From an uncultured Chroococcidiopsis sp. (GTDB lineage: Bacteria > Cyanobacteriota > Cyanobacteriia > Cyanobacteriales > Chroococcidiopsidaceae): 49,825 bases of DNA. The stretch is taken from NCBI GenBank assembly GCA_964248365.1, contig CAXTYC010000037.1, positions 1-49,825 on the forward strand. Reading direction: 5' to 3'. Position numbers and translations under genes: made by a program. The notes under the pieces were generated by a model. That model searched no databases. It was given only the letters and a program-made list of their open reading frames with translations, and was not told the origin of the DNA. Of the stretch, positions 1 through 42,865 are shown piece after piece (the stretch's first letter is position 1; the number at the start of each line of letters is the position of its first letter).

Positions 1-689
1 AAAGTTTTGGACTATCCCTCTGCCTGCCTAAATCATGACTTAATTGTGCAACGCCAAAAAATCGCCACAACTCAAACAAGTAAATCAGAATCTGTTGAAG
101 GCGATTCAACCAGAAGGAGTAGAAGTAGAAATCCGACTGGTCGAAGAAGTCCTGGAAGGAATTGAAGAATCACAATTGGATGAAATGTGGAGCTATGTAG
201 GTAAGAAAACGAATCAGCGCTGGCTCTGGCACGCGATTGATAGAATTACAGGGCAAGTTTTAGCTTACACTTTTGGACAACGAAAAGATGAAGTGTTTCT
301 CCAACTCAAAAAGTTATTAAGTAGGTCGTCTGAAATAAACAGCGAACCGTGTGTTGGCGTTTCTTTTCGGCAGCAAGGGTTATCTATGTTGACGGTTCGC
401 TGTTTATTTATGACGAGTGTACTTAGAGCCATTTGGTATTCAGAAATATTGCACGGATGGTTGGGGAGCTTACTCGCGCCATCTATCTCCAGAAAACCAC
501 TGTGTAGGGAAAAGAAAAACGCACAGAATTGAACGGAAGCATTTGGGATTGAGAACAAGAATCAAACGACTAGTTAGAAAGACAATTTGCTTTTCCAAGT
601 CTGAGGAAATGCACGATCTAGTTATTGGATTATTTATTAACCGCTACGAGTTTGGTCTAAATGTTTAACAACATTTTGATAACAGTACC
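1..689 (+). mobile_element. IS1-family element (left part outside window); insB interrupted by MITE-A
   Basis: InsB motifs DEMWSYVGKK, WLWHAID and IERKHLGLRTRIKRLVRKTICFSK. Removing 320-425 restores KKLLEPFG. Right end ...ATAACAGTACC at 689 resembles the GGTAGTGTT end of the IS1 at 40732. Confidence 0.9.
320..423 (+). mobile_element. MITE family A, copy 1 (104 bp, TA duplication)
   Basis: AGTAGGTCGTC...GACGAGTGTACT with about 32-bp imperfect inverted arms, flanked by TA at 318-319 and 424-425. Excision restores the IS1 frame. Confidence 0.92.
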
Positions 690-5070: not shown

Positions 5071-6056
5071 GTAAGGATTCAGGTCAGGGGTATTGACAAG
5101 TGTGACATCTGAGGCGGAATATCACAATTATGGAAAAAGACCTGCCTCTGAAAGTAGACCGTGAAACTCTTCTCCAGTTGGCTGCCGAACAACTGGTGGA
5201 CATCATTGCCGAGCAGGCGATCGCTATAGATAAACTAAACAAGAAAATTTTAGAATTAGAGCAAGAAGTACAAAAACTCAAGGTTAGTAGAGATTTAGAT
5301 AGTTCTACATCATCGAAGCCGCCATCTGGGGATATCCTAAAAAAATCAGAAAATCAAGAAGAAGTAGGGGATGGGAACAGCGAGACTCCAAAACGGAAGC
5401 CAGGAGGACAACCAGGACATCCAGGTAAAACTAGAAAGGGGTTTGGTCGAGTAGATAGATTTGAGATTTTACGCCCCCAATTGTGTCGTTGCTGTGGTCA
5501 GACGGACTTTGTTTCAGAACCGATAAAAATCGAAACACAGCAAGTAGCGCAGCTGGCAGAGCGACCAATAGAAATAGTTGAATATCATCGACACACATGC
5601 ATTTGCTCTCGGTGTGGTGAAGCACAAACAGCAGACTGGTCGCCAGATATAGTCCCAGGACAAGATATAGGAATCAAACTGCAAGCTTTTTTGGGATGGA
5701 TAAATAATTATGGACATTTACCCTATGAAAAACAACAAGAACTGTTGTGGGAACTGGGTCAGATAGAAATCGGGGTGGGAACCCTAGTAACTACGAATCA
5801 AAGAATAGATGCTGCTGTTGATAAAAGCGTTAGTGAACTGAAAGATTGGATAGAGCAAACACAGCCAAATATTCATTCGGATGAGACACCTTGGGTTGTG
5901 AAGGGCGTGAAGGAATGGTTGTGGATTTTTGCGAATACAGACTTTGGTCTGTTTCATGCCGCAGATACTCGCAAAGAGTGCACAATTAGAAACCATCCTT
6001 GGTTTGAGCTACAGTGGTGTACTTAGCTCAGACGATTATTGCGTTTATAACGGCTA
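5071..6056 (+). mobile_element. IS66-family element, truncated
   Basis: Left end GTAAGGATTCAGG. TnpC motifs SSKPPSGD, PGGQPGHPG, zinc finger and HSDETPW. Frameshift near 5975; homology ends at the MITE-A copy. Confidence 0.88.
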
Positions 6057-6162
6057 AGTACACTCGTCATAAAAAAATGCGCGAACCGTCAACATAGATA
6101 ACCCTTGCTGCCGAAAAGAAACGCCAACACACGGTTCGCACATTTTTTTCAGACGACCTACT
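6057..6162 (-). mobile_element. MITE family A, copy 2
   Basis: Reverse complement of copy 1 with B-type arms on both sides; TA on both flanks. Confidence 0.9.
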
Positions 6163-11091: not shown

Positions 11092-11219
11092 CGGGGTGAC
11101 AGAGAGCCTACAATGTAGACTGGATCAGAGTCATAGCACGTAGACCCTGCTGAAAATAGGGTAGTTTATTCGGCTTAGTTCGCATTAACTCAATAGCCAA
11201 ATCCGCCCATTGCTCCATA

Positions 11220-11324
11220 AGTAGGTCGTCTGAAATAAACAGCGAACCGTGTGTTGGCGTTTCTTTTCGGCAGCAAGGGTTATCTATGTTGACGGTTCGC
11301 GCATTTTTTTATGACGAGTGTACT
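11220..11324 (+). mobile_element. MITE family A, copy 3
   Basis: Near-identical to copy 1; TA flanks; sits at the break point of the IS701 transposase. Confidence 0.9.
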
Positions 11325-11326
11325 TA

Positions 11327-11783
11327 CCACAATTCCATTTTCAGTTTTTCCCAGGTTTCCTATATACTGTCGTTTCACATAATCTGTTTTGTCTCCTTTC
11401 TTTTTATCTCCTGTTTCATCAATAATTAAAATAATTGGTCGCTCTTTTAGCACTTGTAAAATTAGTTCTAATCGCAAAGCTCTTAACCGTTCTATTTCCC
11501 AAGGTGATGTAGTTAAGAAATGATGTAGGGATTGATGGTTATCTAATCCTACAATTTTTGCTATTTCTGGTAGGGTTTTACGTTTTAATTGGGAAATACA
11601 TCCTATATGTAGGTACTTAAATGCCTCAAAGCTCCTAACATCTGAAAACAGGTTTTTATACCACCTGCAATATTCGTCCACGAATTTGACTGTTGGTACG
11701 GGTGGACGAGGCTCTACCATGCTCTGTGTCTTCGTTCTAGAGTTTGCCCGTTATTATACCACTGCCAGAGTGACAAAATAGGG
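11327..11783 (-). mobile_element. IS701-family fragment (left end and N-terminal transposase)
   Basis: LIIDETGDKKKG..TDYVKRQYIGNLGKTENGIV; end CCCTATTTTGTCACTCTG on the minus strand. Confidence 0.88.
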
Positions 11784-12149: not shown

Positions 12150-12300
12150 CAAATCTTGCTGTAGCGATCCAAACTTGCGTAAATATGACTAAAGAACTAA
12201 AATTGACTCGAATTAAGGGTTTTGCGGTTAGGTAATCTCTGCGGTGTATTACTTTTCTGTGATTGTCCAACATAGTGAACGAGACTTTTTTTTGATGATA

Positions 12301-12405
12301 AGTACACTCGTCATAAAAAAATGCGCGAACCGTCAACATAGATAACCTTTGCTGCCGAAAAGAAACGCCAACACACGGTTCGCTGTTTATTTCAGACGAC
12401 CTACT
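12301..12405 (-). mobile_element. MITE family A, copy 4
   Basis: Reverse complement of copy 3 with one substitution; TA flanks. Confidence 0.9.
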
Positions 12406-12690
12406 TATTGGGTGCATCCTTTCTGTTCCAGTTTTTCGTCTAAACTCTAGTTTAGGGCTTACGCACTGTAAAAAAACTAAAGTCTGCTTCAACGCCCATT
12501 ACGTTTTTGTGTGCTGTTGGTGTAATCAGCGTCACTTTTATAGCAGTAGACAGCGCAATGCCTACAGTGAAACTGCTGAACTAGGCATTGGTATCATCGT
12601 TAAGATTGGGTAATTTTACTGTAGTTCACAAATTGACGATTAGGTAAAAACTTAATAGACAAAATAAAGGACTTTATAAAGTTTGAGTCG

Positions 12691-20466: not shown

Positions 20467-22407
20467 GTTAGGGTCGAGGGAGGTTATTAGACCTCGCCCC
20501 TCCCTGTTAGATCCGGACGTGCGAGATTTCCCCGCATCCGGCTCCCGACGTTCTTAGTCGTGACTTTTGCTCATGTGGTGGTAATCGTGGCAGCTTTCGT
20601 GGACGGCTGAAAGGTTTTTAGGCTTCCAGTTGTTATGGTTACCATCTACATGATGTAGGTGTACCCTTTCGTCACTTAGCGTTTTTAATCCACAATATCC
20701 ACAGGTATGGTTTTGCCTTTTCAGGACTTGTGAGGTTAATCCGTCATAGAGTTTGCTGTTACGCGCACTCCAGTAGGTTAAGTCGCCATCGTAGGGCGAT
20801 TTGTCTTCCTTGACATTGACGAATCTATTTTCGGAGTAAGGAACGTATGGGAACGCTTTATTCAGTAGTATCTTACTGGTGTGGCGGTTCTGCTTCTTTT
20901 CCTTATTGAATACCTTGAACGCTCTTTTCTGAATGAAATACAGCGAATTTCTCGCTCCATCCATCTTGCAGTAGCGGTGGTAATTTCTCCAACCTCTTAC
21001 TATGGGGGCTAATTTCATAGCCTTGATCTTTGCACCATAATTCGAGTTCTTGACGATTTCTTTTACCTTCTGACGGAAAGCCTTGAAGTTGTCCACTGAT
21101 GGAACACATCTAAACTTTCCGTTGGTTTGCACTTTGAAATGCCACCCAAGGAAATCAAATCCATCTGTCGCTGCGGTTAGCTTTGTTTTCTTTTCACTGA
21201 CATTCATTCCTCTGTGGGCGAGAAACTGGCTGATTTTGTCAAGTATTGCCTTTGCGTCATCTTGGGGTCTTAGTATGAGTCGGGTAGGGCGGGGGCATTG
21301 CTGCCCCTTTCCCCCCTAGAAACCGGACTTACAAGTTTCCAAGTATCCGGCTTGAGCAATCTACAAGGCTATTTCTTCCCATGAGCCTGCTGGTGGCAAT
21401 AAAGGTGCAATAGGCGAAGGTTATTGTAGGTGTCCTTACCACCTTCGCTTTTTGGTTTGACATGATGTAGATGTAGTTCTTCCCCGTTGTATAGGGATTC
21501 ACCACACGTCGGGCATTGGTGGTTTTGATTTTTGGCTATCGTTTGTCGGGATTTGTTTCTCAGGTTTTTCACCTTCTTCATTTCCCTGTCGCTCCAATAG
21601 TCCCTTAAGTCGGGGTCGTCGGAAGAGGATGAGCCTTTAACTAGGGTGTGCCGTTCGATGTCGAACCAACTGAATTTCAGTATATGCGCTCCCAGGCTTT
21701 TATCACCAAATACCCATTTGTCAGGACGGTGAAGATTTAAACTGCCGAAATAGCGTTTTTGTCTCCACTTCCAACCTTTTTTGGGGTGCATTCTCCTGGT
21801 GTGTCGTCTTTCTGTGATAAACATCCACCGATCTAGACCAGAGAAGGTTTCTTTGGAAACTCCAGTACGGAAATAGTTAGCCCATCCCCGAATTACCGAA
21901 TTTAGTTTTCCGAGTAGTTCTGGTAGTCTGAATCTGACAGGAGATAGCCAAATATCCCTAAGTTTTGCCCGTACCTTCTGCACTGACTTGGTACTAGGTT
22001 TTATGAGTAGTTTCCAACCTGTAGCAGTATTGGAGTCTCGATAGTGCCTAATATTAAAACCGAGGAAATCAAAGCCAGCCGTAAGATGTTTTATGCTGGT
22101 TTTTTCAGAGGAAATATTAAGTCCCCTTTGTGCCAGCCATCCTTTTATGACTTCTACGCATATGAGTGCGTCTTCTTTGGTTTCGCAGAACACGCAAAAG
22201 TCGTGGGCGTAGCGCACAACTTGGCGTTTGCCGATAGACTGTCCTCGCAAGTCGTATGTGACTCCAAGGGCTTGTTCCATTCCGTGTAGTGCAATATTAG
22301 CCAAGAGGGGGCTGATATTGCCGCCTTGTGGCGTACCGCTGTCGGTTTCGTGAAAAACCCCTTTATCCATTACTCCTGCTTTGAGCCATTGGTGAATCAA
22401 CTTCCTA

Positions 22408-22511
22408 AGTAGGTCGTCTGAAATAAACAGCGAACCGTGTGTTGGCGGATCTGATCAGCAGCAAGGGTTATCTATGTTGACGGTTCGCGCATTTTTTTAT
22501 GACTTTGTACT
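22408..22511 (+). mobile_element. MITE family A, copy 5
   Basis: TA duplication at 22406-22407 and 22512-22513; excision restores the RT frame. Confidence 0.92.
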
Positions 22512-22958
22512 TAGCTGGGAAGTTGCCAATGCTTTTCATCAGGTAGTCATGGTCGATATTATCAAAACACCCTTGAATGTCAGCGTCTATCACCCATTTT
22601 TTCCGCTTATTAGGGCGGCATATACCATAGATTTTCTCTATGGCATCATGGGCGCTTCTGCCAGGACGAAAACCGTAGCTCGTCCCTTCAAAAAGGGCTG
22701 ACCAGCTTGGCTCCAAAGCATTCTTAACGATTGCCTGTAGGCATCTATCAATTATGCTAGGTATTCCGAGAAGTCGTTTCTTACCGTTTGGCTTAGGAAT
22801 TTCGACACGTTTTGATGGTAGTGGTTTCCAGGGAATAAATTTTCCCAGGGCATCTACTAACACACCTCTTGCTTCCGGTGTAAGTACCAGAAGTTTGTCC
22901 ACCCCAGGCGTGTGCTTGCCAGAGTTCTGCTGTGTTACCCTTCTTACTGCTATCAGTA

Positions 22959-23062
22959 TATTGGAGTCATCCTAAAACTAAGCCCAGCTAGATAAACAAC
23001 AAGCGTATACATAGGAATAAACAGCTCCGCCAAGAGGGCTGGGCTTAATTTACGGATAGGTC
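22959..23062 (-). mobile_element. MITE family C, short copy (net 104-bp insertion)
   Basis: TATTGGAGT repeated at 22959 and 23063; arms TAAGCCCAGC/GCTGGGCTTA; removal restores the RT frame. Confidence 0.85.
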
Positions 23063-23475
23063 TATTGGAGTAGCAACGCATTAGCAGCTTTTGCAGGCTG
23101 CGAACTTTTTTCCAGTTTGACTCACGGGTAGCTCTGAAGATTCTTTGTCTTAGATTTCTCACTACACGGTTGGAGTCGCGCCAGTTGACGCGGCTCCATT
23201 CGGTAGTTTCCTTGGTTACGTTTGCAGTTGCCTGCATCTAACTTTTCCTTTTGGTTTCGATTTCTTTACAAAAGAATTTCAGAAAGATCACCTGCTGCAC
23301 GTCAGCACCCTTTCAGGTTAGGCATCTACCTTATCCGTCAGGTTATGTTTTTTTTCCCTTTGCCTTTCGGCGTGACGGCATTCGCTTCTTGCAGCTTCCT
23401 TATCCCGCTAGGGAATTCGGGTTGCCTTGCGGCTTCCTTACTGAGTGCAAATGCATTCAGTCCCTATCGGGGTTA

Positions 23476-23579
23476 TATGGAATCCTAAAAATAATGAAAC
23501 AGCCTTATTTAAAAATCTCTCGTACACAGCAGGTATTCGCACTTGAAGGCTGTTTCATTATTTTGAGGAAACGTTATTA
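23476..23579. mobile_element. MITE family D in the inner intron RNA (net 104 bp)
   Basis: Perfect 19-bp IR AAAATAATGAAACAGCCTT/AAGGCTGTTTCATTATTTT with TTA repeated at both ends. Confidence 0.75.
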
Positions 23580-25397
23580 CTTCGTTCCGCATGGATTGAG
23601 ATCCGATCTGGGTTGGGTTCCTTTCTTTACTCCGGGGCGAGGTGTCCGCACATTCATGTAGTAAAGCATGGATGCCAGTTGCCCATCCTGCCGTATAAGT
23701 CACTTCCGACAGTTGGATGTCACGAAGCTTAAAAAAGGTTCACTGTACGTTAACCCGTCCACTTCTTCCCCTCGCCTCCCTTTCAAGATGTGACTACCTA
23801 CCGGGGTTCGGCTTTTCCTCTAGCTTTGAGACAACCGGATTACTCCTATTGCCCCTTTGGATGGGGACGGCTTTGTTGGACACTTAGCCGGAGAGTTGTT
23901 CCTATGAGGCTCTCACTCAAACCATGCGACATCGAGTCGCACCTACCATGTCATCCGCATAGCGGATTGTGGGTTCTACTAATTTCCCATCTCTGTATCT
24001 ATGGATACTTTCGATGCCATTTAATGCAATGTTAGCTAACAAGGGACTCACCACGCCCCCTTGAGGTGTACCCACATCGGGGTATTCACAGGTTGACTCC
24101 TGATTTGAGACAGCGGAAAATCCCTGTCTTGATGCCCCTTGGGACGATGAGTCGTTCCATTATGGATGTGTGGCTTATCCTATCGAAGCATTTTTCGATG
24201 TCCAGTTCGAGGACTCGTTTTCCTTTTCCGCCCCTATCGGAGCGTAGGTTTAATTGCAGGAGTTTTTGAGCGTCATGCGTTGAACGTCCTGGTCTAAACC
24301 CATAGCTACGTGCCTGAAAGGTTGCTTCGTGTGCTGGTTCCATTGCGAATTTTACGAGGCAAAGACACGCTCTATCCGCGATGGTTGGGACTTTTAGGAT
24401 TCGGGTTTTCCCGTCCTTTTTTGGGATTGGGATTTCCCTTAACTTCTGGTGTTGCCAGTTGTTATAGTGGTTCCTGAGCCAAAGACTCAGGTTTAGCCTC
24501 TCATAGAAGGTTAGGGAGGCTTTGCCATCTACTCCTGCTGTCCGTTTTCCAGCGTTTAGCTGCGTTACTTGACGTACTGCCAACATTCTCGCCGCATAGG
24601 ATTTCAGTATCAGCTTTTGAAGGGACGCGCGCTTTGCGCTTGTCACCTGCTCGAATAGCTTTCCACACTCGCACTTGTAGGCGGAATAGACTGCGCTGGA
24701 GTTTCTTCCAGTCTGTCTTTTTCCAAAGTTCACTAGCTTTTGGGCTGTATCTAACCATGCTCTGTTTGTGTTTGTGTGTTCGCAAGCGCCTTGCAGCAAT
24801 TACGCTGCATCCTACCCACATCGAGGATTTCCGCTGCTCGTCCAGCCGAAGAGGTTCGACCTTTCCCAAGACCTCTAATGTGTTTTTATTCGTTCGCTCG
24901 GTCAGATTGTTACGTTCTTTTAGGTGTAGCCAGTTCAACTATTGGGTTCCCTTGACTCTTGCCGCTTACAGTAAAATTTTGCGGCGGGAATGTTTCTCCT
25001 TTTTCTTGGGAGTTTTTCCCCAATGGGGTCGGGGGTTTTATGTTGCGCCCCGCTGCGAAGTAAGTTGCTTTTTTTTAGGCTCTTTTTCACCGTGAGAACT
25101 CCCCATTAGCATGAGAGATTTGGGGGAGAATAATTCTTCCCCAAACTCTCTCGCCAGTGTCACCCCGCCACGGATGTCTGATTGCGCCCTGTTCCCAGCT
25201 TCGCTCTGCCGATTTCCCTTGCGGTACTCCAAGTCGGTTCGGCGTGGGCAGGTAGGGATTTACGCCTGAGTCTGGCGAGTGGGGTTTTCACCCACATACA
25301 ACCAAGAGTTCAACCTTTAGTGACAGTAATCTGCTGTCGGGTTGGGTAGCTTATGCTTCGGACTGATTACCGAGATTCGGCTACCAACGAATCGCAA

Positions 25398-25940: not shown

Positions 25941-26416
25941 TTTTCTCGCCTCATGTGCGAATAATTGAAATAAAGCAGGTGCTTTCTGTCGCGCTACAAA
26001 GGTATCAAGCGGGTGACGTGCAAGGCTGAGCGATTGCTTGATTCTGAAACAGGTTGTGGGTAGCCCTCGAAAAGCTGGCTGCGTAGGAATTAGAGTTATT
26101 AGGTACTTTCATTTCCAAGCAGCTATTACCTGCCGCCTATCCGCTGCGTAAGCGTTGCTTAAACGTTGTTATCGCAATTCCTGAAATACCAGCGTTTTTA
26201 CAACAGGACGATAATTACCTAGCTTTGGGGTTGCTTTCAATTGAGTGCCAGCAATTGTTTCCCTCACTTTTTGTAGTTCTGCTGCCAGCAGCTTTTGGTA
26301 TTGCTCGTCGTCTGGTTGGCGATCGCCTGCACTCATCAGTCTTCCCCCTTCAATCTGCCTGTTGTTGCACCAGGGCTGAAGGCTGCTTGTGACAAGGAAT
26401 GTACAAATAGATTCGG

Positions 26417-27184
26417 CTATGTCTCCCCTTCTACAACCTCATCGAGTAGTGCTTTCAACACCAGATCATATGCTTCATCTTCTAATACTGGATATGAGCG
26501 CAAGTATGAAGCGGTAGACCACCGTTGCATTTTGTCGTAGTCGAAACCAACACATTTCAAAATTTTCTTGACGCGGTTGCGATCGCGCGTTGATTTGGGA
26601 TTTAGCCCAGCATCCGCAATCAGTTGGGTGAGACTTCGCCCTTTTGTACTATTGATTTCTCTTCCGGCAGAATCGAGGAAACGATCACGGTACACAAGCT
26701 CTTTTGGTGGGGGCGCTTCACCGCGCAGCCACCGCAACAATGCGGCACTGGTCGAAAGTTGAATAGCATACCCCGTATCCTGATAGTGCTGTTTGGCTCG
26801 GATTAGCTCAAGTTCCAGCTTCATTCGCTCTATTTCTGCGTTTTGGGCAGGAATGGCTTGTTTGATTACTTGTTTGGCTTGGGAAAAGGCTTGTACTAGG
26901 GCAACCTTGCAGTCCACCACTTGAGGAGTATTTCGGGAAAAGCTCATTAGCAGAGTAGATTGGTCTTCAGTTAGATAAGCCACGCGCTCAGGACGACCGC
27001 CTTTACTGCCTTTGAGGGGTTTCTCCGTTTCAAACCGCACAACCCCAAATGCTGCTTCTATGCGATGAAGGTAATTATCTAAGGTTTCAAGCAGACTTTT
27101 GTGTGTGATCCCTAAATCTTGAGCAATCAAGCGCGAATCAACAACTAGAACGTTATCACGTGAGGTAACTGTTAAATTAGACAT
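26417..27184 (-). CDS. Rha-family phage regulatory protein
   Basis: VVDSRLIA..LG..HKSLL, GGRP...AYLTEDQSTLLM and K.ALVQAF. Confidence 0.85.
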   Translation of the reverse strand: MSNLTVTSRDNVLVVDSRLIAQDLGITHKSLLETLDNYLHRIEAAFGVVRFETEKPLKGSKGGRPERVAYLTEDQSTLLMSFSRNTPQVVDCKVALVQAFSQAKQVIKQAIPAQNAEIERMKLELELIRAKQHYQDTGYAIQLSTSAALLRWLRGEAPPPKELVYRDRFLDSAGREINSTKGRSLTQLIADAGLNPKSTRDRNRVKKILKCVGFDYDKMQRWSTASYLRSYPVLEDEAYDLVLKALLDEVVEGET

Positions 27185-32577: not shown

Positions 32578-33902
32578 TACCTGATTTTGAAGCAGTGGGG
32601 CAGCTTGAGGAATTAGTTGAAGAACCAGACTAAGCCTCCTGAATATTTCATTAGGTACGCAATAATGCCTGTTTTAATGGTGAATAACCAATAAAGCAGG
32701 CTAACTTTTTAAGTGTTACAATTGTTTGCATAAGTTATGCAACCCTTAGAATATTTGCTAAATTTTCTAATTACAGAGATTGGTATAGAGGCTACTTTCC
32801 AAGTAGTATACGAAGCTGTTAGTCAAGATAGCTCATCTGAGCAAGCCGACCAACTATACTCAGCTTTTCGCGTTGTAATAGATGTGCAAAAACAACGACA
32901 CTTGCTATAGCGATCATGTGGCGTGAAACTCAGAAGGATTGGACAAAGTAATTCTTCAGTTAGGTTAGAGGATGTTTCTACTGCTGCCCCGAAACAAATA
33001 TTCTTTTTCCAATTAGCTAAACTCTACCCAACATTTGGTGGCGTTCGAGTACAAGTGTTGGGCATTGGTGGGAATTGTTGTTCACCCATCACCAGAAAAA
33101 TATGGTATCCATTAAAGACAAGATTGCCAAAATGTTGTTACTGGCAAATGGAGAATTAGTCCGCCATCGTCATGCAGTTGAGGCAGGGCTATTTGTAGAA
33201 GATAAAAACACCTCGCATTTGAGCACAAAGAAAAAGATTAAGCAAATCTAAATGATTAATACCTAAAAGCCAATGAGCAGGTAATAGTGAAAAGCTTAAA
33301 CTAACTAATACTAGGTAGTATAAAGGTAGTTGAAGCTTAACACTACTTTTGTTGATAGTTAGTAGAGGTATTCAAAGTAGATGCCTCTGCTAACGAGAAA
33401 AATATTTTGCATTTGTTCATTGTGCATTACTCTTAGTTTCAGTAGTAACCCTTAATCCAAGGTGACTAATGATATTAATGTCAACAGAATTCACAACGGC
33501 GACAAAAGAAATAGTACAGCCAAAAACTCTTGAACAGCCCGCGTACTACAAGGCGCATTACCAGCGCATTTACTTTAAAGCTAAGCTCGCAAGTTAAGCC
33601 TACTTTACTCAAACATCTTAGTTAGATCAGCACACAAATAAGGCAAATTCAAGGCGATTCATTAACTATTCACTAATTGCTGAAATTCTGGATTAGGGTA
33701 AGTTCTGTCTTTTAAGGACAAAATGATGTTTTAGCGAACGGGGAATTAGTATGCCATTGCCGTACAGTAAAAATAGAAATTTTTGAAATCCGATCTGAAG
33801 CAAAATCCTAGTCTGAAAAAGCAAAGGCAATACCCAACAAAGCAAGTAACCGTAGCAAACGAACATTTCATTACTTCAAATTTGACTACCAGGAAATCAA
33901 CC

Positions 33903-34949
33903 ATGTTCAAAAAAGCAACAAAAACACGGATTCGGCTTCGCCTAGCTTTATGCGGACCATCAGGTTCGGGTAAAACTATGTCCTCATTAGCAATCGCCTC
34001 ACACTTGGGGCAGCGTATCGCCGTTATCGACACCGAAAGGGGCAGTGCTTCTCGTTATGCAGACGATTTCGAGTTTGACGTAGTAGAGCTTGAAAGTTTT
34101 CATCCGACAAAATATATTCAGGCGATTAAAGCTGCTTCACAAGCTGGTTATGACGTATTGATCATTGATTCCCTTTCTCATGCATGGATAGGAAAAGACG
34201 GTGAACTAGACCTGGTAGAACGAGGTAAAAACTCCTTCACAGCTTGGAAAGATGTCAGACCATTAGAAAGAGCCTTGATTGATGCAATGTTAGGGTGCAA
34301 ATGCCACCTGATTGCCACGATGAGGACGAAAACTGAATGGGTGGTAGAACAGAACGAAAGGGGTAAAGCGGAACCACGACGGGTAGGTACTGCTCCAATT
34401 CAAACTCACAATATTGAATATGAATTTGATTTGGCAGGAGAGTTAAACTTGCACAATACCTTAACAATTACTAAGTCGAGGTGTCCAGCTTTGAGTGGAC
34501 AGATGTTTGTCCAACCAGGAAAACAAATAGCAGATGCTCTCAAAGTCTGGCTGGACAGTGGATTACCAGCACAAGCAGTTAACCCAAGCTTGCAACCGAG
34601 TGAGGTTTTTGCGGGTGGTACGAGCAAGGTAGAAAGTTCTAGTGAAATGGGTGAAAAGCCACAAGACAACCCGAATCGGGAATTGCTTAAACGAATTGGT
34701 CAAATCACCGGACACTCTAGCAAACAGATTGCACAGATACTGGAAACAAACTTCCCAGGCAGAACAAGTGGCTCTCTTAATGACCTAGAAGTCAGATCCA
34801 TAGTTGATGCCATGTGCGTTCTGGCAGCCACAAATGCTATGGATGAAGACGTGGCACAAACAGCGTTTAACACATGGTCTAACCATGTGCCGCCAGAAAC
34901 GGCTTATGAAGAACTGGCGCGAGGCTGGATGGAACAAGTCTCGTTCTGA
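33903..34949 (+). CDS. AAA_24 / Sak4-like phage-type ATPase
   Basis: KATK..RLRLALCGPSGSGKT, IDTERGS, IIDSLSHAW and EYEFD; AGGA RBS before ATG 33903. Confidence 0.85.
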   Translation: MFKKATKTRIRLRLALCGPSGSGKTMSSLAIASHLGQRIAVIDTERGSASRYADDFEFDVVELESFHPTKYIQAIKAASQAGYDVLIIDSLSHAWIGKDGELDLVERGKNSFTAWKDVRPLERALIDAMLGCKCHLIATMRTKTEWVVEQNERGKAEPRRVGTAPIQTHNIEYEFDLAGELNLHNTLTITKSRCPALSGQMFVQPGKQIADALKVWLDSGLPAQAVNPSLQPSEVFAGGTSKVESSSEMGEKPQDNPNRELLKRIGQITGHSSKQIAQILETNFPGRTSGSLNDLEVRSIVDAMCVLAATNAMDEDVAQTAFNTWSNHVPPETAYEELARGWMEQVSF

Positions 34950-35693: not shown

Positions 35694-35994
35694 ATGAAAG
35701 TTTACGAAGTAATAAAAACACTAAAAAGTTCTGGTTGGCGTTTGGAACGGACGACGGGCAGCCACCGCCAATTCAAACACCCTGTTATGCCACAGCTAGT
35801 TACTTTACCTGGAAAACTTTCGCGCATAAGTAGGTCGTCTGAAAAAAATGTGCGAACCGTGTGTTGGCGGATCTGTTATTGCCGCTAGGGTTATCTATGT
35901 TGACGGTTCGCTGTTTATTTATGACGAGTGTACTTACATTCCCATTGGTACACTTCATAAAATTAAGAAAATCGCGTGTCTAAGGATTAAATAA
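35694..35994 (+). pseudogene. hicA: HicA toxin gene interrupted by MITE-A
   Basis: GW...RTTGSHRQFKHP...VTLPG before the MITE and IPIGTLHKI after it. Exact frame is not restored by TA excision. No hicB adjacent. Confidence 0.82.
35829..35934 (+). mobile_element. MITE family A, copy 6
   Basis: TA flanks; B-type left arm and A-type right arm. Confidence 0.9.
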
Positions 35995-35996
35995 CA

Positions 35997-36185
35997 ATGA
36001 ATTTAACTAAACGTCAAACAGCAACAGTACTAGCTGCTTTGAGGTTTTTCCAAGCAAACTTCAACAATTTAGATGAAATGAGAGAAGAAATGTCTTTTCA
36101 TTTTCAAGACAATGAACCACTTGACTATGAGGAAATTGACGATTTGTGCAAACTAATTAACTGCGGATTAATTAAAACCGAATGA
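35997..36185 (+). CDS. Small hypothetical protein
   Basis: 62 aa; ATGA overlap with the next gene. Confidence 0.6.
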   Translation: MNLTKRQTATVLAALRFFQANFNNLDEMREEMSFHFQDNEPLDYEEIDDLCKLINCGLIKTE

Positions 36186-36514
36186 AATTTTTGCTCGTAT
36201 TCCCCCCTTACGGATGGCTGATACTATCTGCTTTGTTTTACGCTCAAGGAGAGTATTTGTCTAAACTCTGGGCTATAAATCCAAGTATTCGTATTTCTCT
36301 GTTAGTGATTTTGTCCTACTCAATGGCAGCATTGACATGGTTGCCTGCACTTCTGCATAAAAACCAAATTACAATTATGGGTGCGGCCTGGCTTCTGCTA
36401 GCTACTGCGGCCACAGTAGTTATTGGTTGTTTCATTTTTAACGAGGATTTGACTTCCTTGCAACTGGTTGGACTGGGGTTGGCTTGCACGGCAATGATAT
36501 TATTAAGTTACTAG
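36182..36514 (+). CDS. Small 4-TM DMT/SMR-like membrane protein
   Basis: 110 aa with four hydrophobic helices and G.FIFNE.LT..Q.VG motif. Confidence 0.7.
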   Translation: MKFLLVFPPYGWLILSALFYAQGEYLSKLWAINPSIRISLLVILSYSMAALTWLPALLHKNQITIMGAAWLLLATAATVVIGCFIFNEDLTSLQLVGLGLACTAMILLSY

Positions 36515-37051
36515 CCACTAGTAGCAATTGTGATCGCGCTGTCACTACAAAACACCCAATAACTAGCACTTCACTTTACTTTTGGATAGGCTCTGAAGTG
36601 GAACAAGAATTAAAGCCTGATAAAATTCCCTGTATTTGGCAATGCTGTGGGGAATATGAAATTATGGCTTGTAGTTTAACTGATGCCATTGCTTTAGCTG
36701 AAGGAAAAGGGGTTTAAATAAGTAAAAATCACTAGAGGCAATCGTACAAGTTTAAAAGTGAGTTGCAAGTAATGTAGACTTTAAAAGCAAAACATCAAGA
36801 GTAGGTGACAGCTTTTACCAAAATTAGGAGAATAAGTAATTACCAGCCTTTTCAAGAGTATTTGTCCGCATTGGTAGTGATTTGACAATGCGATCGCTCA
36901 CTTGCCTGAACTTTTTATAACTCTGTGAGAATTTTTAAAATCCTCGCTCCTCTTACCAAAAATGCGATTGCTCTCATCCAAGACTGAATAAATTATGAAG
37001 CAAAAAACAGTTGCCGCTTTGTTGCAAGCTTACAGGCGATTGCAACAGATA

Positions 37052-37157
37052 AGTAGGTCGTCTGAAATAAACAGCGAACCGTGTGTTGGCGGATCTGTTA
37101 TTGCCGCTAGGGTTATCTATGTTGACGGTTCGCACATTTTTTTATGACGAGTGTACT
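37052..37157 (+). mobile_element. MITE family A, copy 7
   Basis: TA flanks; shares the TA at 37158-37159 with MITE-B. Confidence 0.9.
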
Positions 37158-37159
37158 TA

Positions 37160-37260
37160 GCGTTTTTCTGACAAATTGGTGAAACCTTCATTAACATAAC
37201 TGTGTGTATACTGGACTATTCGAGAGGACAAAAAGGTTTCACACGTTACGAAAACGGGTG
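37160..37260 (+). mobile_element. MITE family B, copy 3
   Basis: TA on both sides; near-identical to the other two copies. Confidence 0.88.
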
Positions 37261-37625
37261 TAAAGTAGTCATCAAAGAGTATTGACGGCTATCATGCCTC
37301 AGATCAGCACTGAGGCATGATAAGTGATGCTTTTGTTGGCTGCTTATTCCTAAGTATCCCGATCATCAGTTATCAAGTTAAAGGCTATGCAACAGACTTA
37401 CTACCTATGCCTGCTGCTGAATAGGTAACGCTCTGGCTTGCTACGGCTTACAACTTTTGCACAAGGCTATCGAGATTTTACGGGTGATAAAGCGGAACAG
37501 ATGTTCAAGTAACCAACTAGTTTTGACCACACCCGCTTATCTTATATGGTTTAACTATGGCGTTAAACTAACGTTAAAATATTTTGTTGAGGTGAGGTTA
37601 TGAGTATCCTTAAGCTACCAAAAAG

Positions 37626-37856
37626 ATGGAATCTACAGTAAGCCTTGTTGTTCATGCAGATGAAACTAGTTCTCAAGTTACTACAAAAGCAGGTCAAGTA
37701 CTCAAAGAGTTTACAGATTCTGATGATTACCAGGCTAACCTCAAAGCTGCGGAATCATGGCTAGCCGAACACGGGTTTGTTCATGTGGGTCAGAATGATT
37801 ATGCGAAGTATGACCCATTAATAACTGGTGACACATCCCAGAGTAAATACGAGTAG
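37626..37856 (+). CDS. Small hypothetical protein
   Basis: 76-aa ORF upstream of the sigma factor. Confidence 0.5.
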   Translation: MESTVSLVVHADETSSQVTTKAGQVLKEFTDSDDYQANLKAAESWLAEHGFVHVGQNDYAKYDPLITGDTSQSKYE

Positions 37857-37957
37857 AAGGATTAAGGGTTAAAGACTATCAAAGTCCTTTCAAGATATTA
37901 AGAAATATTAGTCTTCTGGCATTAACATAGTCAGACCTAATCTATTGTTGGGTTGAT

Positions 37958-38914
37958 GTGACAGCTGGGAATATGGATTTAGTTCAAATATATCTCAACG
38001 AAATCGGGCGGATACCATTGCTAACTCATGATCTTGAAGTAGCCTATGGCAGGCAAGTGCAGCAGATGATGCACTTGCTAGAGGCGAAAAAGTCTTTGAG
38101 CGAGAAATTATCTCGTGAGCCAACAGTTTCTGAGTGGGCAGGGGCAGTTTCGCAGTCTGGGTCAGAACTAAATCAAACCATACGCGCTGGGCAACGAGCT
38201 AGACAAAAGATGGTGAGTGCGAACCTACGTTTGGTAGTAGCAATTGCCAAGAAGTATCAGCATCGAGGACTAGAATTACTAGATTTGATACAAGAAGGAA
38301 CAATTGGGTTACAGCGGGGAGTAGAGAAGTTTGACCCAAGCATTGGATACAGACTTTCGACCTACTGCTACTGGTGGATTAAACAGGCAATTAGCCGTGC
38401 AATCATGGATCAGTCTCGCACTATCCGTATGCCGATACATCTGACGGAAAAGCTGAACAAAATTAAGAAATCTGCGCGGATTTTATCGCAAAAGCTAGGA
38501 CGAATGCCAAAAATCTTGGAACTAGCAACCCATGCTGGAATGAGCCAGTCGCAAGTGCTACAGTTACTCGAATACAAGCACAACGCGGCAATATCTTTAG
38601 ACATACTTATAAATGAAGGGCAAGACACTACCCTGGGGGAGCTATTGGAGGATGACAATGCTGCCGCCGCTATGGAAAGTTATGTACTCTACTCTTCAAT
38701 GCGCAATGACATCGATCAACTGATGTTAGAGCGCCTTACACCTCAAGAGCAGCAAGTCTTGTCACTGCGGTTTGGACTAATTGGTGTTGAAGGCGATTTA
38801 TCGCTTGCTAAGGTTGGTGAGCAGATGAATTTGACGCGAGAGCGGATTCGTCAAGTAGAGAAAAAAGGCTTGAACAAACTGCGGCGGCACTGTGATGTGT
38901 TGGAGGGGTATTAA
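37958..38914 (+). CDS. RNA polymerase sigma70 factor, cyanobacterial group-2-like
   Basis: YLNEIGRIPLL, ANLRLVVAIAKKY, DLIQEG, STYCYWWIKQAI and TRERIRQ. Confidence 0.93.
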   Translation: MTAGNMDLVQIYLNEIGRIPLLTHDLEVAYGRQVQQMMHLLEAKKSLSEKLSREPTVSEWAGAVSQSGSELNQTIRAGQRARQKMVSANLRLVVAIAKKYQHRGLELLDLIQEGTIGLQRGVEKFDPSIGYRLSTYCYWWIKQAISRAIMDQSRTIRMPIHLTEKLNKIKKSARILSQKLGRMPKILELATHAGMSQSQVLQLLEYKHNAAISLDILINEGQDTTLGELLEDDNAAAAMESYVLYSSMRNDIDQLMLERLTPQEQQVLSLRFGLIGVEGDLSLAKVGEQMNLTRERIRQVEKKGLNKLRRHCDVLEGY

Positions 38915-39307
38915 ATTGACTAGCACAGTCTCACTTTAGCTAAAATAGTAAATACAAATGTACTAATAAAAATGCATATCCTCTGGTTTCGACGGGATTT
39001 GCGGCTGCGTGACAATGAAATGGTAGCTCTAGCATCTGCTAATAATGCCTCGGTTTTACCTTGTTTTATTATCGATCCTTGGTTTTACCAGCAGCCAGAT
39101 GTAGGTAAGGCAAGGGTAAAGTTTTTATTTGAGTCTCTAGAAAATCTGAACTCTAATCTTTTGAGCCTGGGTAGCCAGTTATATATATTTGAGGGCGAGA
39201 GCATAGCTATCCTTCAAGCTCTTACTAGAGAGCTACTAGAGCAATCTTTCCGTCCTAAGCTGTTCTTCAACCGCGATGTACAGGTAGGGTATGGTATCGA
39301 CCGCGAT

Positions 39308-39328
39308 AACTTCGTTCAGCTTCGCTAA
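39308..39328 (-). mobile_element. 21-nt small dispersed element inserted in HIP1 (SDR5-like)
   Basis: GCGAT-AACTTCGTTCAGCTTCGCTAA-CGC; removal regenerates GCGATCGC. Confidence 0.88.
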
Positions 39329-39815
39329 CGCGCTATTGTTGATTTCTACCGCCAACAAAATCTGGGCTATCACTTGGGTTTAAATAACTTCGTCCAAGTT
39401 GATAGCGATCGCCGTGACGAATGGTTTAATGAGTACTACACCTATCAACGGCAACCGCTGCATCCAACACCCACACAGATTAATACGCCCCAGCTAGCCC
39501 TTAACCTGCCGCAACTTACATTTGATCAGTTGAAGCAAAAATATAGTCAGTTTTGGCAGATAAATACTGGGTATTTTACAGGTGGCGAAACTAATGCTGT
39601 CGCCACATTAGAATCGTTTCTCGAACATCGATTTTCTGGATACCACTGGAAAGTATCTCGTCCAATGTTAGCGCAGCAAGGTGCAACATCTCACCTTTCG
39701 CCGCACCTAACTTTTGGCACAATATCAACTCGCACTGTCTATCAAAGCACAAAAGCAAGAGTAGCCCAATTAGCTCTTCAACCAAAGGCTGAGTTTTCAC
39801 TTAAAGCCTTCCGCG

Positions 39816-39836
39816 TTAGCGAAGCTTAACGAAGTT
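39816..39836 (+). mobile_element. 21-nt small dispersed element inserted in HIP1 (SDR5-like)
   Basis: GCG-TTAGCGAAGCTTAACGAAGTT-ATCGC; 20/21 identical to the reverse complement of the other copy. Removal gives FRDRLRWHD. Confidence 0.9.
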
Positions 39837-40731
39837 ATCGCTTGCGTTGGCACGATAGCTTTACTCAAAGGCTATATCATTATCCAGAATTAGTGCATCA
39901 AAATCGTTACCCAGAGTTTGACGAGTACTATAACTTAGAGCCATTAACCGAACAAAAGCAAGAATTACTGGCTGCTTGGAAGGAAGGAGAAACAGGTTTT
40001 CCATTAGTTGATGCTTCTATGCGGCAGTTAAAGACGATGGGGTGGATGAACTTTAGAACTAGAGCAATGTGCGCCACATTTTTGTGTATCAACTGCGGTA
40101 TTTCTTGGCATCACGGTGGACAGCACTATATGCAGTACCTAGTTGACGGCGACCTGGCAATAGACCACTGGCAGTGGCAAATGCAAGCTGGAATCACTAA
40201 TTCCTTATCCGACACCTTCCGCATTTACAATCCTAACAAGAATATCGAAGATAGGGACTCGGATCTAAAGTTCATTTATCATTGGGTTCCAGAATTACAC
40301 GGGTATAGCTTGCCAGAAATTCTGAATGGGGTTTACACAGGTGAAAGCCCCTATCCTGCACCAGTGTTGGATTGGGCGCAAACAAGGAAAGTTAACGGTA
40401 AGATCGTCTCGGACTTGAGGAGAAAAGTGAAGCAGCGGTTGATTGAGTCGGGTGGTGATGAATACTCGCAAGCTACCAAAGCCAAAATTACTGTAGATAA
40501 GTATTGGGCTGTTAAAGATAAGCAGTACAAAGAGTATCAATGCCAGAAACAGAACTTGGAATTAAAATCAACAGTAAATTTCTAGCTGTTAGGAGAATTG
40601 CTTTTATATATTTAAAGTAGGTTTAATAAAAAACCGCGCTTGAGTAAAACTAGCGGTAAACAGAAGAAGCTTGGAGGATTGGCTTTATGAGAAAGCGGAT
40701 TAAATTAACTTGTTAATGCGTTGATTTTATT

Positions 40732-41565
40732 GGTAGTGTTTTAGATTTGTTAAACAGAGATCTGGAGAAGTCAGATAAAGGCTAGAGTTTAATCAGTAGC
40801 TTGATGAGAAATCATGACTGTTTGGCTAGCCGTTCATTGTCCTCACTGCCAAAGGAAAGATGTGAAGAAGCTAGGCACATCTTCCAATGGTAAACGACGC
40901 TATCGCTGCCTAAATTCCGAGTGTCCGCACTCTACTTTCAGCTTGAATTTAGATGACCCAGGTCGCAAACGGGAGGTCAAGCAGCAAATCGTGGAAATGA
41001 CCCTCAATGGTAGCGCAGTTAGAGATATCGCCCGCGTGCTGCATATTAGCACAGCTACTGTCATTCAAGAACTAAAAGAAAACTCCACACTGGTAAAGTG
41101 TCAATCAGAAATTGTTGAGCCAGCTACAACTGGAGCAAGTGGAGGTCGTCATTGAGCTTGTGTTGGCAGATGAACAGACTGTGGTTGAAGAGTCCGAACT
41201 TGACCAGATGTGGAGTTATGTAGGTAAGAAGACGAATCCAAGATGGTTATGGCACGCAATTGACCGGAAGACAGGACAAGTACTGGCTTATGTTTTTGGG
41301 AGAAGAAAAGATGAAGTATTTCTTCAACTTAAGACACTGTTAGAACCGTTTGGAATCAAGCGCTATTGTACAGACGGATGGAGAGCATATGAACGCCATT
41401 TACCAGTCGAACTGCATCAGGTAGGGAAGCGAAATACCTAAAGAATCGAGCGTAAGCATCTAAGTTTAAGAACGAGAATTAAGCGATTAGTACGCAAGAC
41501 AATCTGCTTTTCCAAGACAGAATTGATGCACGATCTAGTAATTGGACTATTTATAAATCGCTACG
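40732..41565 (+). mobile_element. IS1-family element, insA plus degraded insB, right end missing
   Basis: InsA zinc finger CPHC...RYRC...C and HTH; InsB with D(E>Q) change and a premature stop at 41441. Confidence 0.88.
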
Positions 41566-41809
41566 TACGCATCAATAATTTTCTGACGCAGGTCTACAGA
41601 GTATGCTTTCATTTAGCTTCCGTCCAAGTTTCCCCCTTAAGTGTATCTTATTCAACTAAGAACCGCTGTATCTTTCACTACACGTTAAGCAATTCTCATT
41701 TCTCTGTTTTCCAGATTTTTTAGCTGGAAACGTTTATCAGTCTCTCATTATGCATCTATGAGATGCGTTTGCCCTGGGCAGAAAGGTTGATCAGATGGCT
41801 TTGAAGACA

Positions 41810-42865
41810 TTAATCATTAGGATCAACGCCATCCTGACACTGATTTCTACTATTTTTATTTGGGAAGGCTGTAATAATGGCACCATCGGATATCCTGATA
41901 ATCACTGTAACAGTTTTAGTATCCTTTAGCCTTGGATAGTTCTCATTCAGCTCTCTGAGATATATCTCCCGTGAGAAGCATATCTTTCTTCTATCAATTA
42001 TTCCAGTCTTCTTATCTTTTCCATATGACGTTTCATCTGGACTAGATAGTACTCCTCGAATCCCTATATCCGCGACATCTGTCCAATCTCCTTCACCAAA
42101 CGGGAATAGTGCCTCTTCGACCAAAGCCGTCCACTCTTTTTTATGTTTCTCCTCAATATGTAGAAAACCGTAACCTTCGTCACCGCCTTTACCACACAAA
42201 AGTTGACTAACACCGTTTGGATATTCGGGGTAATAGATTTCTGTGCGAAAAAAATCTCTTATAGGTTTGTTCTCATTAGCATTAGCATTCTTACAATTTC
42301 CCCAAGTCTCTCCCACTCCATTATCCAGTGGCGGTGGAACTCGATCGTGAATACCTGATGCCCAGATAACCTTATTATTTCTATCATAAGTTACTACATT
42401 GCCATCATTTTGTACTTCAAGACGATAAGGTGAAGTACCTATTCTATCCCTAAAAGCCCGAACTGCATTGCTAGAATTTAAACTAAATCTAGAATAAAGG
42501 ACAAAATTTCCATCTGCCTGCATAACAGCCCAATATACGGTTTTACCATTAGTCCTTGATGACCAAATAGACTGACGATTAATATTTTTAACATCATATT
42601 TATAAAGTACAAGATTGCCATCAGTCTGCATATCTAAAACATAACGCTTATTAGGCGAATTTAAGTGGTAGCCCGCACGCAAGGCCTGATCTTGTCTCAA
42701 TATATTGTTATCAGATCTATAGAATTCAGGACTTGTATCTGATATACCTACTATAGTAATTTGATTTTGAGCAAAAGACTTATTAATTTGAACCCCTCCT
42801 ACAGTAAATAATGTGGTAAATAGGGAAAAAGTAGTAAGCAAGCGACCAATTTTTGTAATATTCAC
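41810..42865 (-). CDS. Secreted bulb-type (B-) lectin protein with an uncharacterised C-terminal domain
   Basis: Signal peptide; three QxDxNxVxY motifs (QTDGNLVLY, QADGNFVLY, QNDGNVVTY); C-domain GYGFLHIEEKH...IITAFP. Confidence 0.85.
   Translation of the reverse strand: MNITKIGRLLTTFSLFTTLFTVGGVQINKSFAQNQITIVGISDTSPEFYRSDNNILRQDQALRAGYHLNSPNKRYVLDMQTDGNLVLYKYDVKNINRQSIWSSRTNGKTVYWAVMQADGNFVLYSRFSLNSSNAVRAFRDRIGTSPYRLEVQNDGNVVTYDRNNKVIWASGIHDRVPPPLDNGVGETWGNCKNANANENKPIRDFFRTEIYYPEYPNGVSQLLCGKGGDEGYGFLHIEEKHKKEWTALVEEALFPFGEGDWTDVADIGIRGVLSSPDETSYGKDKKTGIIDRRKICFSREIYLRELNENYPRLKDTKTVTVIIRISDGAIITAFPNKNSRNQCQDGVDPND

Follow-up and report, generated by a model that had tools for sequence, protein, structure and literature searches.

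A photolyase/cryptochrome-family gene of the window (the whole stretch of DNA analysed, 49,825 nucleotides) is interrupted by two copies of a 21-nt element, each set exactly within the cyanobacterial palindrome GCGATCGC (HIP1) at GCG^ATCGC, and the same two sites are filled by the same 21-mer, in the same orientation, in several other lineages of homologs. The explanation favoured here, with a confidence somewhat better than even, is de novo insertion that happened repeatedly: an activity supplied in trans would nick HIP1 in single-stranded form and join the element into it, the gene affected being dispensable and its targets conserved. The kind of element has been known since 2008; the recurrent, orientation-fixed filling of homologous sites appears to be the new part, and may already be contained in the 2008 paper. 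The genome of the window DNA (5.58 Mb) is referred to as G000; other G numbers denote genomes of relatives, L numbers loci and P numbers proteins, and features are located in Table 1.

Table 1. Position of the two inserts, their HIP1 targets, the interrupted gene and its upstream neighbour within the window
Feature	Position	Strand	Remarks
HIP1 site 1, split by insert 1	39303..39331	-	GCGAT + 21 nt + CGC; on the - strand GCG + 21 nt + ATCGC
Insert 1, 21 nt, G-linker variant	39308..39328	-	TAA at 39326-39328 on the sense strand
HIP1 site 2, split by insert 2	39813..39841	+	GCG + 21 nt + ATCGC
Insert 2, 21 nt, commonest variant	39816..39836	+	TAA at 39827-39829
Interrupted photolyase/cryptochrome-family gene	38972..40585	+	523 aa without inserts
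Third HIP1 site of the photolyase-like gene, unfilled	39405..39412	.	
Sigma-70 family gene, 57 bp upstream of the photolyase-like gene	37958..38914	+	Neighbour common to the empty sister allele L014

A sequence-only reading of this DNA had described one 21-mer inserted in opposite orientations at equivalent points of two HIP1 sites, with a single mismatch and without target duplication, and the sequence bears this out: the inserts differ at 1 of 21 positions, both have unambiguous ends, and target duplication is absent. The frame running from the ATG at 38972 to the stop at 40585 comprises 538 codons with two internal TAA, one per insert, and removal of both inserts in silico gives 523 aa with zero internal stops, as that reading had also stated; the intact 523-aa homolog P0078 matches this product at 478 of 523 positions (91%), with two 7-residue gaps exactly at the inserts. 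Pfam domain PF00875 is found on the first piece of the interrupted gene and PF03441 on the last, and with site 1 as the only filled site the frame of the FAD domain stays open downstream of a possible restart. The G-linker variant is single-copy in G000 and an established variant in G001-G004 and G006, while the variant of insert 2 has five exact copies in G000, the window copy counted. The two sites correspond to codons R111-D112-R113 and R274-D275-R276, where homologs carry empty HIP1; among 43 intact homologs R111, D112 and D275 are invariant and R274 and R276 nearly so, and the HIP1 targets are held in place because these R-D-R residues are conserved. Arrival in the window allele, previously described as very recent, is probably fairly recent, with the intact relative at the protein identity given above and several relatives' contigs, at ~88-93% DNA identity, empty at the sites. 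These contigs come from four sequencing runs, in which relatives alone represent the region; the best run shared 0.20 of the words of the window, and RNA runs were absent from the listing. Positions 39303-39332 and 39812-39841 form a 30-nt inverted repeat with a spacing of 479 nt, and inversion between its arms would leave the frame unrestored.

HIP1 occurs at 5556 sites in G000, where 11 copies of the element lie within 3 mismatches, 8/11 between perfect and 3/11 between near-HIP1 halves; given these copies and a reversed-pattern control with 0 matches in all 41 genomes searched, the match between the two inserts is not due to chance. A genome-wide copy search and a check for homologs with empty HIP1 returned further copies and, at both codon sets, empty sites, upholding the earlier claim of HIP1-targeted mobility. 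Sister forms of 21-27 nt are also present in G000, and a structure-based detector (reversed-sequence control 4; recall 13/15 on alignment-proven inserts) identified 47 inserts there, or 61 in union with the motif search; the length spectrum of GCG-N(k)-ATCGC in G000 has no peak at 21, the copies being too few. The near-exact 29-mer was found in 20/41 relatives, and in 6/6 of the genus, and a looser pattern anchored on the first hairpin in 157/401 genomes of the order, with sporadic single control matches. Among the matches listed, the exact variant occupies at least 117 loci, with carriers in Nostoc, Calothrix, Scytonema, Chroococcidiopsis, Pleurocapsa, Myxosarcina, Stenomitos, Phormidium, Microcoleus and Nodosilinea, and a one-mismatch copy lies inside HIP1 on Nostoc punctiforme plasmid pNPUN01. 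No master or autonomous copy was found among the half-matches of G000, all of which are short HIP1 inserts, repeat-embedded variants or isolated partial matches; viral contigs gave 13 matches and no clusters, about half of the matches falling in high-GC non-cyanobacterial DNA and probably reflecting chance.

Further HIP1 inserts were observed beside this family. The window holds a third, a 22-nt sister variant at 26146..26175 (+), outside the photolyase-like gene, and across the window contig 3 HIP1 sites are filled and 20 empty. At C3:103443-104685 of G000, between toxin-antitoxin and Uma2-like genes, another family contributes five 24-nt HIP1 inserts that share a single strand and lie partly within duplicated segments. 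Clusters of two and three 22-nt inserts at C11:131850-132231 and C14:89566-90739 each frameshift a single gene, in the first case an unknown one close to a ParB-like gene and in the second one with HEAT repeats, and at C11:111404-111432 an in-frame 21-nt insert adds seven residues to a gene presumed to be of the PspA/Vipp1-like family. A 7-copy cluster in G272, considered in the search for a master copy, is a duplicated HIP1 tandem array; L170, L177 and L360 are likewise tandem arrays of HIP1-containing repeats, with several units filled, partly via array duplication.

The insert had been read as two GAA mini-hairpins, and this structure is backed by covariation and not by folding energies. 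The twin hairpin is not the best structure in nearest-neighbour folding of either DNA or RNA (z -0.65 to +0.13), a lack of signal that is to be expected because conventional models fail on mini-hairpins: according to the available text of PMC13037366, mini-hairpin stability is not explained by such models, and DNA mini-hairpins form with GNA loops only. Among 40 distinct 21-mers, selected by hairpin 1 only, hairpin 2 retains its middle pair in 39/40 (A-T 21, C-G 13, T-A 4), against a mean of 18.5 and a maximum of 29 in shuffles, a figure that is not a probability since the variants are related to each other. The outer pair of hairpin 2 is kept in 34/40 and the loop is GNA in 36/40, while one pair of a competing long stem is kept in only 15/40. 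On the strength of this covariation the insert would consist of two C(GNA)G mini-hairpins and, C-G-closed GNA triloops being a DNA feature, its substrate may well be single-stranded DNA.

The element equals seven codons, and its effect on a gene depends on the frame of the target, HIP1 in the Ala-Ile-Ala frame leaving it open in both orientations and the other two HIP1 frames giving stops in both. From the 103 independent site clusters, the 40 located well within long ORFs were counted and the 63 others set aside; open-frame sites account for 35/40, compared with 49% expected from HIP1 frame use in G000 (p=3e-7), an approximate figure, as dead genes leave the long-ORF class and frame use varies among genomes. 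Five clusters are stop-phase, two of them sites 1 and 2 of the photolyase-like gene. This distribution indicates that the element is normally translated as seven added residues and is eliminated where its stop falls in a gene that is needed; since both photolyase-like sites read Arg-Asp-Arg, the gene would, on the favoured explanation, be off for good.

The designation of the host gene as a photolyase holds for the superfamily fold and domains, and fails for the residues of CPD repair. Alignment of L034 to 1dnp places Arg and Phe at the E. coli E274 and N341 columns, Arg being nearly invariant and Phe invariant across 43 homologs, and the equivalents of these class I CPD photolyase lesion-binding residues are absent from the host protein. 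Identity to class I enzymes is ~30%, the protein falls below every cut-off of the NCBIfam photolyase/cryptochrome models, and an alignment-based structure model (pLDDT 70.7) confirms the superfamily and nothing finer. The gene thus appears cryptochrome-like rather than a proven photolyase, and because the CPD-repair residues are missing, the idea of a UV switch loses its basis. It is present in 37/401 genomes, in varied, non-syntenic neighbourhoods, and transposons or nonsense codons often disrupt it; full-length homologs that are conserved number at least 120. Its closest named fragments are from Chroococcidiopsis. Owing to this sparse, non-syntenic and often broken occurrence, and to another photolyase-family gene on C13 of G000, it is best read as dispensable mobile cargo.

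The window contig is IS-rich and HIP1-poor, and carries phage-type genes, a Rha regulator and an AAA_24 ATPase (26417-27184 and 33783-34949), together suggesting a plasmid or island. A ~100-nt repeat occurs at least seven times in the window (313-415, 6055-6148, 11213-11329, 12296-12408, 22401-22503, 35843-35920 and 37065-37142), with internal inverted arms and some inverted pairs, resembling insertion sequence ends or miniature forms, and 20554-24799 contains fragmented reading frames of a group II intron reverse transcriptase/maturase/HNH. Rfam gave no match within 36000-42000, and the promoter scan stayed at chance level.

Within the genus, three of five gene copies carry the same 21-mer at both sites in matching orientations (the window allele, L015 in G004 and L016 in G006), and L014 and L034, both from G005, are empty at the sites. 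L015 has an additional TGA unrelated to the inserts, with other breaks among the alleles of its clade, and L016 a third insert at an open-frame site. The filled copies are non-syntenic and do not form a clade, the window allele grouping with L014 against a second clade of L034 and the trio of L015, L016 and the empty L157; between the clades, synonymous changes have reached saturation while the 21-mers differ by one base at most. L015 and L016, with both inserts in common, differ at a dS of 1.0 with a dN/dS of 0.07 (pairwise values). Overall, the same 21-mer occurs in constant orientation at site 1 in 4-5 lineages and at site 2 in 3-4, interspersed among empty alleles. Four clusters among 77 short homologs end in the site-1 signature RDNFV(K/Q)LR (P0001, 6 members; P0002, 4 members; P0003; P0004), making five site-1 lineages with the window allele, none of them closer to another filled lineage than to an intact homolog, or four if one event is common to P0002 and P0003, which tie at 0.88. 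The site-2 signature terminates four of 36 middle fragments, and site 1 is empty in two of the four (P0217, P0218); around site 2 the P0002 lineage has a near-identical counterpart in P0254, where both sites are empty. The opposite orientation was found at neither site among protein fragments, and in 0/162 flank pairs. Synonymous differences occur directly beside the junctions, and alleles are mosaic, indicating recombination.

Other insert families use the same positions, at site 1 in L155, L167, P0012, P0013, P0025, P0135 and P0139 and at site 2 in L162, L167, P0127 and P0174, and inserts at further sites of homologs occur in L136, L159, L161 and L024; at least four other insert sequences, in-frame ones included, were found at site 1 or 2. 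The 27-nt insert of L155 lies at site 1 in the opposite orientation, and the 97.7% identical L166 carries there a HIP1 with one base changed exactly as a slippage deletion of the 27-nt insert would leave; in G000 this footprint is not in excess (1 case, the rarest of 16 dinucleotides). Filled genes have about one change each at invariant columns, compared with 57 in 42 intact genes, and hence no excess. In L035, P0111 and P0137 the linker of photolyase-like homologs harbours a palindromic, non-HIP1 insertion of 48-51 nt, in frame.

Among family homologs 9/46 HIP1 sites are filled (10 were detected, one of them false), a count that includes the window gene, itself chosen for having inserts, and in the five genus copies 7/13. 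Core sigma-factor loci of the same family have 0/120 filled (vs 9/46, p=5e-6), and across G000 filling amounts to 29/984 non-coding and 32/4626 coding HIP1. HIP1 near other elements is filled in only 2-3 of ~200 cases in four genus genomes, 20 loci from other families contain no detected inserts (0/37 HIP1), and homolog loci of two other island genes, a small sample, have 0/18 filled. The flanks of the photolyase loci are enriched as well (3/31), the comparison of gene (10/46 detected) with flanks being non-significant (p=0.22), and part of the filling excess is therefore regional. Among 120 full-length protein clusters four in-frame inserts were found, placing the family-wide rate nearer neutral and the excess in the genus, and low local HIP1 density, as a mark of foreign DNA, is not predictive of filling in G000.

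Before HIP1, T is favoured and G avoided, and a leave-one-out flank matrix gave the correct orientation in 71-75 of 103 site clusters. All 12 of 12 orientations were correct for a second recurrent site, one codon of a multi-copy short-chain dehydrogenase family that is filled in 12 distinct flank contexts, in several genera and in a single orientation, with 2/30 sampled loci of the family filled. At the photolyase sites the matrix scores are middling, explaining the orientation at site 2 (3/3) and not at site 1 (1/3). Recurrent sites sit in multi-copy or mobile genes. The dehydrogenase codon, R-A-T-A^I-A, takes the element in frame in L069, L168, L169, L176, L185, L212, L216, L217, L231, L238, L242, L270, L277 and L322, and several of the carrier genes appear decayed; a pair in G003, considered as a photolyase double hit, was rejected, the gene being a short-chain dehydrogenase.

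Under repeated de novo insertion, the two inserts would be independent copies of a non-autonomous, SDR5-type micro-element that some activity supplied in trans inserts at the GCG^ATCGC point of HIP1; the substrate would most likely be single-stranded DNA, in which the element forms its pair of C(GNA)G mini-hairpins. Orientation would follow from a weak and asymmetric bias in the bases that flank the target, the gene would be knocked out permanently and not reversibly, and the two HIP1 sites would be recurrent hot spots in the genus and beyond. The insertions are taken to be independent events because filled alleles are interspersed among empty ones in DNA and protein trees, because site-2-only alleles (P0217, P0218) exist alongside the near-identical, both-empty P0254, and because flanking synonymous bases differ and at least four other insert sequences use the same sites. 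Several results count against this explanation: the rate exceeds plain neutral accumulation (9/46 and 7/13 against 2-3 of ~200 and 29/984); with no excess decay of filled genes and a dS of 1.0 between L015 and L016, several recent parallel events would be needed; and the flank matrix is middling, with site 1 unexplained and the gene not significantly above its flanks. No mobiliser was found on examination of RAYT co-occurrence, G000 half-matches and viral-contig matches.

An unlikely alternative to such insertion is homing, in which a filled site spreads its insert to empty homologous alleles that pair with incoming single-stranded DNA, the hairpin loop being copied or escaping repair while flank mismatches are corrected to the recipient, such that site and orientation are remembered without co-conversion. 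Homing would account for the constancy of site and orientation in every lineage with the 21-mer (0/162 opposite flank pairs) and for three lineages filled at both sites together, and is helped by the recombination that mosaic alleles show and by the multi-copy or mobile nature of genes with recurrent sites; however, identity between donor and recipient would amount to only 72-78%, the nearest differences lying one to five bases away from the junction, different insert families occupy the same sites (L155 in the other orientation), the insert 1 variant of the window differs from that of L015 and L016, and orientation in the dehydrogenase cluster is predicted by flanks alone. Single ancient insertions, one per site, inherited and then precisely lost many times, would explain the identical 21-mers, codons and orientation in L013, L015 and L016, yet the 21-mers are identical or one base apart despite synonymous saturation between clades, the losses needed far outnumber gains and other families occupy the same sites, making this the least credible account, with hardly any weight given to it.

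The sequence-only reading had itself raised reversibility, and a switch in which precise DNA removal in some chromosomes or cells, or bypass in RNA, turns expression on and off would fit the recurrent filling of the same sites, the low dN/dS between filled alleles without excess decay, and the possible one-base-footprint loss of a 27-nt sister element (L155 filled, L166 with changed HIP1). Such a switch is nevertheless quite improbable: stop-phase inserts are depleted genome-wide, pointing to an element normally read through within its gene, neither splicing nor a simple switch accords with two stops in series and inserts that face opposite ways, L015 carries an extra nonsense codon with further breaks in its clade, and the slippage footprint is not in excess in G000. 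On the same grounds the data do not support loss of the inserts from RNA or their precise excision as a routine event, the opposite orientations standing in one transcript and the nonsense codon lying in the G004 copy. About equally improbable is selection for loss, with the product or each half costly and first and second knock-outs favoured at an ordinary insertion rate. Breaks by transposons or nonsense codons are frequent among homologs, and a second insert could be selected because filling of site 1 by itself does not close the FAD domain if translation restarts; set against this are other insert families that occupy these sites in frame, an insertion background (0.6-3%) that is slow compared with ordinary mutation, and conservation of at least 120 full-length homologs. 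The absence of excess decay and the footprint-like pair L155/L166 are the reason that both of these accounts retain some small weight. A broader proposal, doubtful at present, is one of site memory, whereby SDR5-type elements home between divergent homologs, or cycle at fixed sites, as bare 21-nt hairpin loops without co-converting flanks, and mobile genes such as this cryptochrome-like gene are repeatedly switched off across lineages by a HIP1-directed process.

How SDR5 moves, and how HIP1 is cut and joined, has been a question since 2008, as the available text of two sources indicates (PMC4390886, PMC13756078), and this gene offers a natural test site. With sites that are filled repeatedly in a fixed orientation, and with an all-or-none stop read-out, it is a ready reporter of either insertion or excision; concrete substrates for mutation come from the flank bias, the frame rule and the covariation of the C(GNA)G hairpins. 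The 21-nt inserts also emerge as a routine source of 7-residue insertions and pseudogenes well beyond the Nostocaceae.

Among known systems, the host protein recalls NewCRY, defined in the available text of PMC7736829 by the lack of E274 and N341 equivalents: it is a two-domain bacterial protein annotated as CPD photolyase, lacks E274 (Arg) and N341 (Phe), and occurs beside another photolyase-family gene, a likeness of features and not of network cluster as used in that source. A point of difference is its position below all NCBIfam photolyase/cryptochrome cut-offs. The element itself resembles REP/REPIN sequences with RAYT (TnpA-REP), and IS200/IS605, in being very short non-autonomous DNA read as single-stranded hairpins, as set out in the available text of PMC3116915 and PMC6006769, and differs from REPs in having no GTAG/GTGG 5' foot and no doublet, in its strict HIP1 target and in inserting within genes. 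G000 does contain a RAYT gene with an apparent 5' frameshift (L302, C39:38471-39037), flanked by REPs that include a GAA mini-hairpin common to the second arm of the element, with five such REPs in the genome; RAYT was rejected as mobiliser, the L302 subfamily occurring in only 4/28 family genomes and 0/5 element-rich genus genomes, and no inserts were detected at the five Y1-transposase loci of G000.

The closest counterpart is SDR5, which Elhai et al. (2008, Genome Res 18:1484) reportedly encountered only within HIP1, its secondary structure said to be conserved with compensatory changes. In the available text of later sources, SDR5 is small dispersed repeat 5 of Nostoc punctiforme and relatives, 21 nt in length (PMC13756078), inserted between HIP1 positions 3 and 4 (PMC4390886). 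The window element has the same length, is cut between HIP1 bases 3 and 4 without duplication, and is dispersed, with 11/11 copies of G000 in HIP1 (8) or near-HIP1 (3), compensatory changes in the middle pair of hairpin 2 (39/40) and a one-mismatch copy in HIP1 on N. punctiforme pNPUN01. The resemblance to SDR5 already suspected is thereby strengthened, and the element is assigned as probably SDR5-type by length, target and structure, not by a published consensus sequence. Two differences stand out. HetR has no match in G000 and matches in two control genomes of the order, which together with the Chroococcidiopsis gene fragments most likely places the window genome outside the Nostocaceae; SDR5-like repeats are stated not to have been found beyond that family in the available text of PMC5861425, in contrast to carriers in Chroococcidiopsis, Pleurocapsa, Myxosarcina, Phormidium, Microcoleus and Nodosilinea, a difference of range and not of structural feature. 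A literature search returned no report of recurrent SDR5 target sites, of which Elhai et al. 2008 or its supplements may list cases, and the available text of PMC4390886, PMC5861425 and PMC13756078 makes no mention of what distinguishes the present element: recurrent filling of homologous genes at the same site and in the same orientation.
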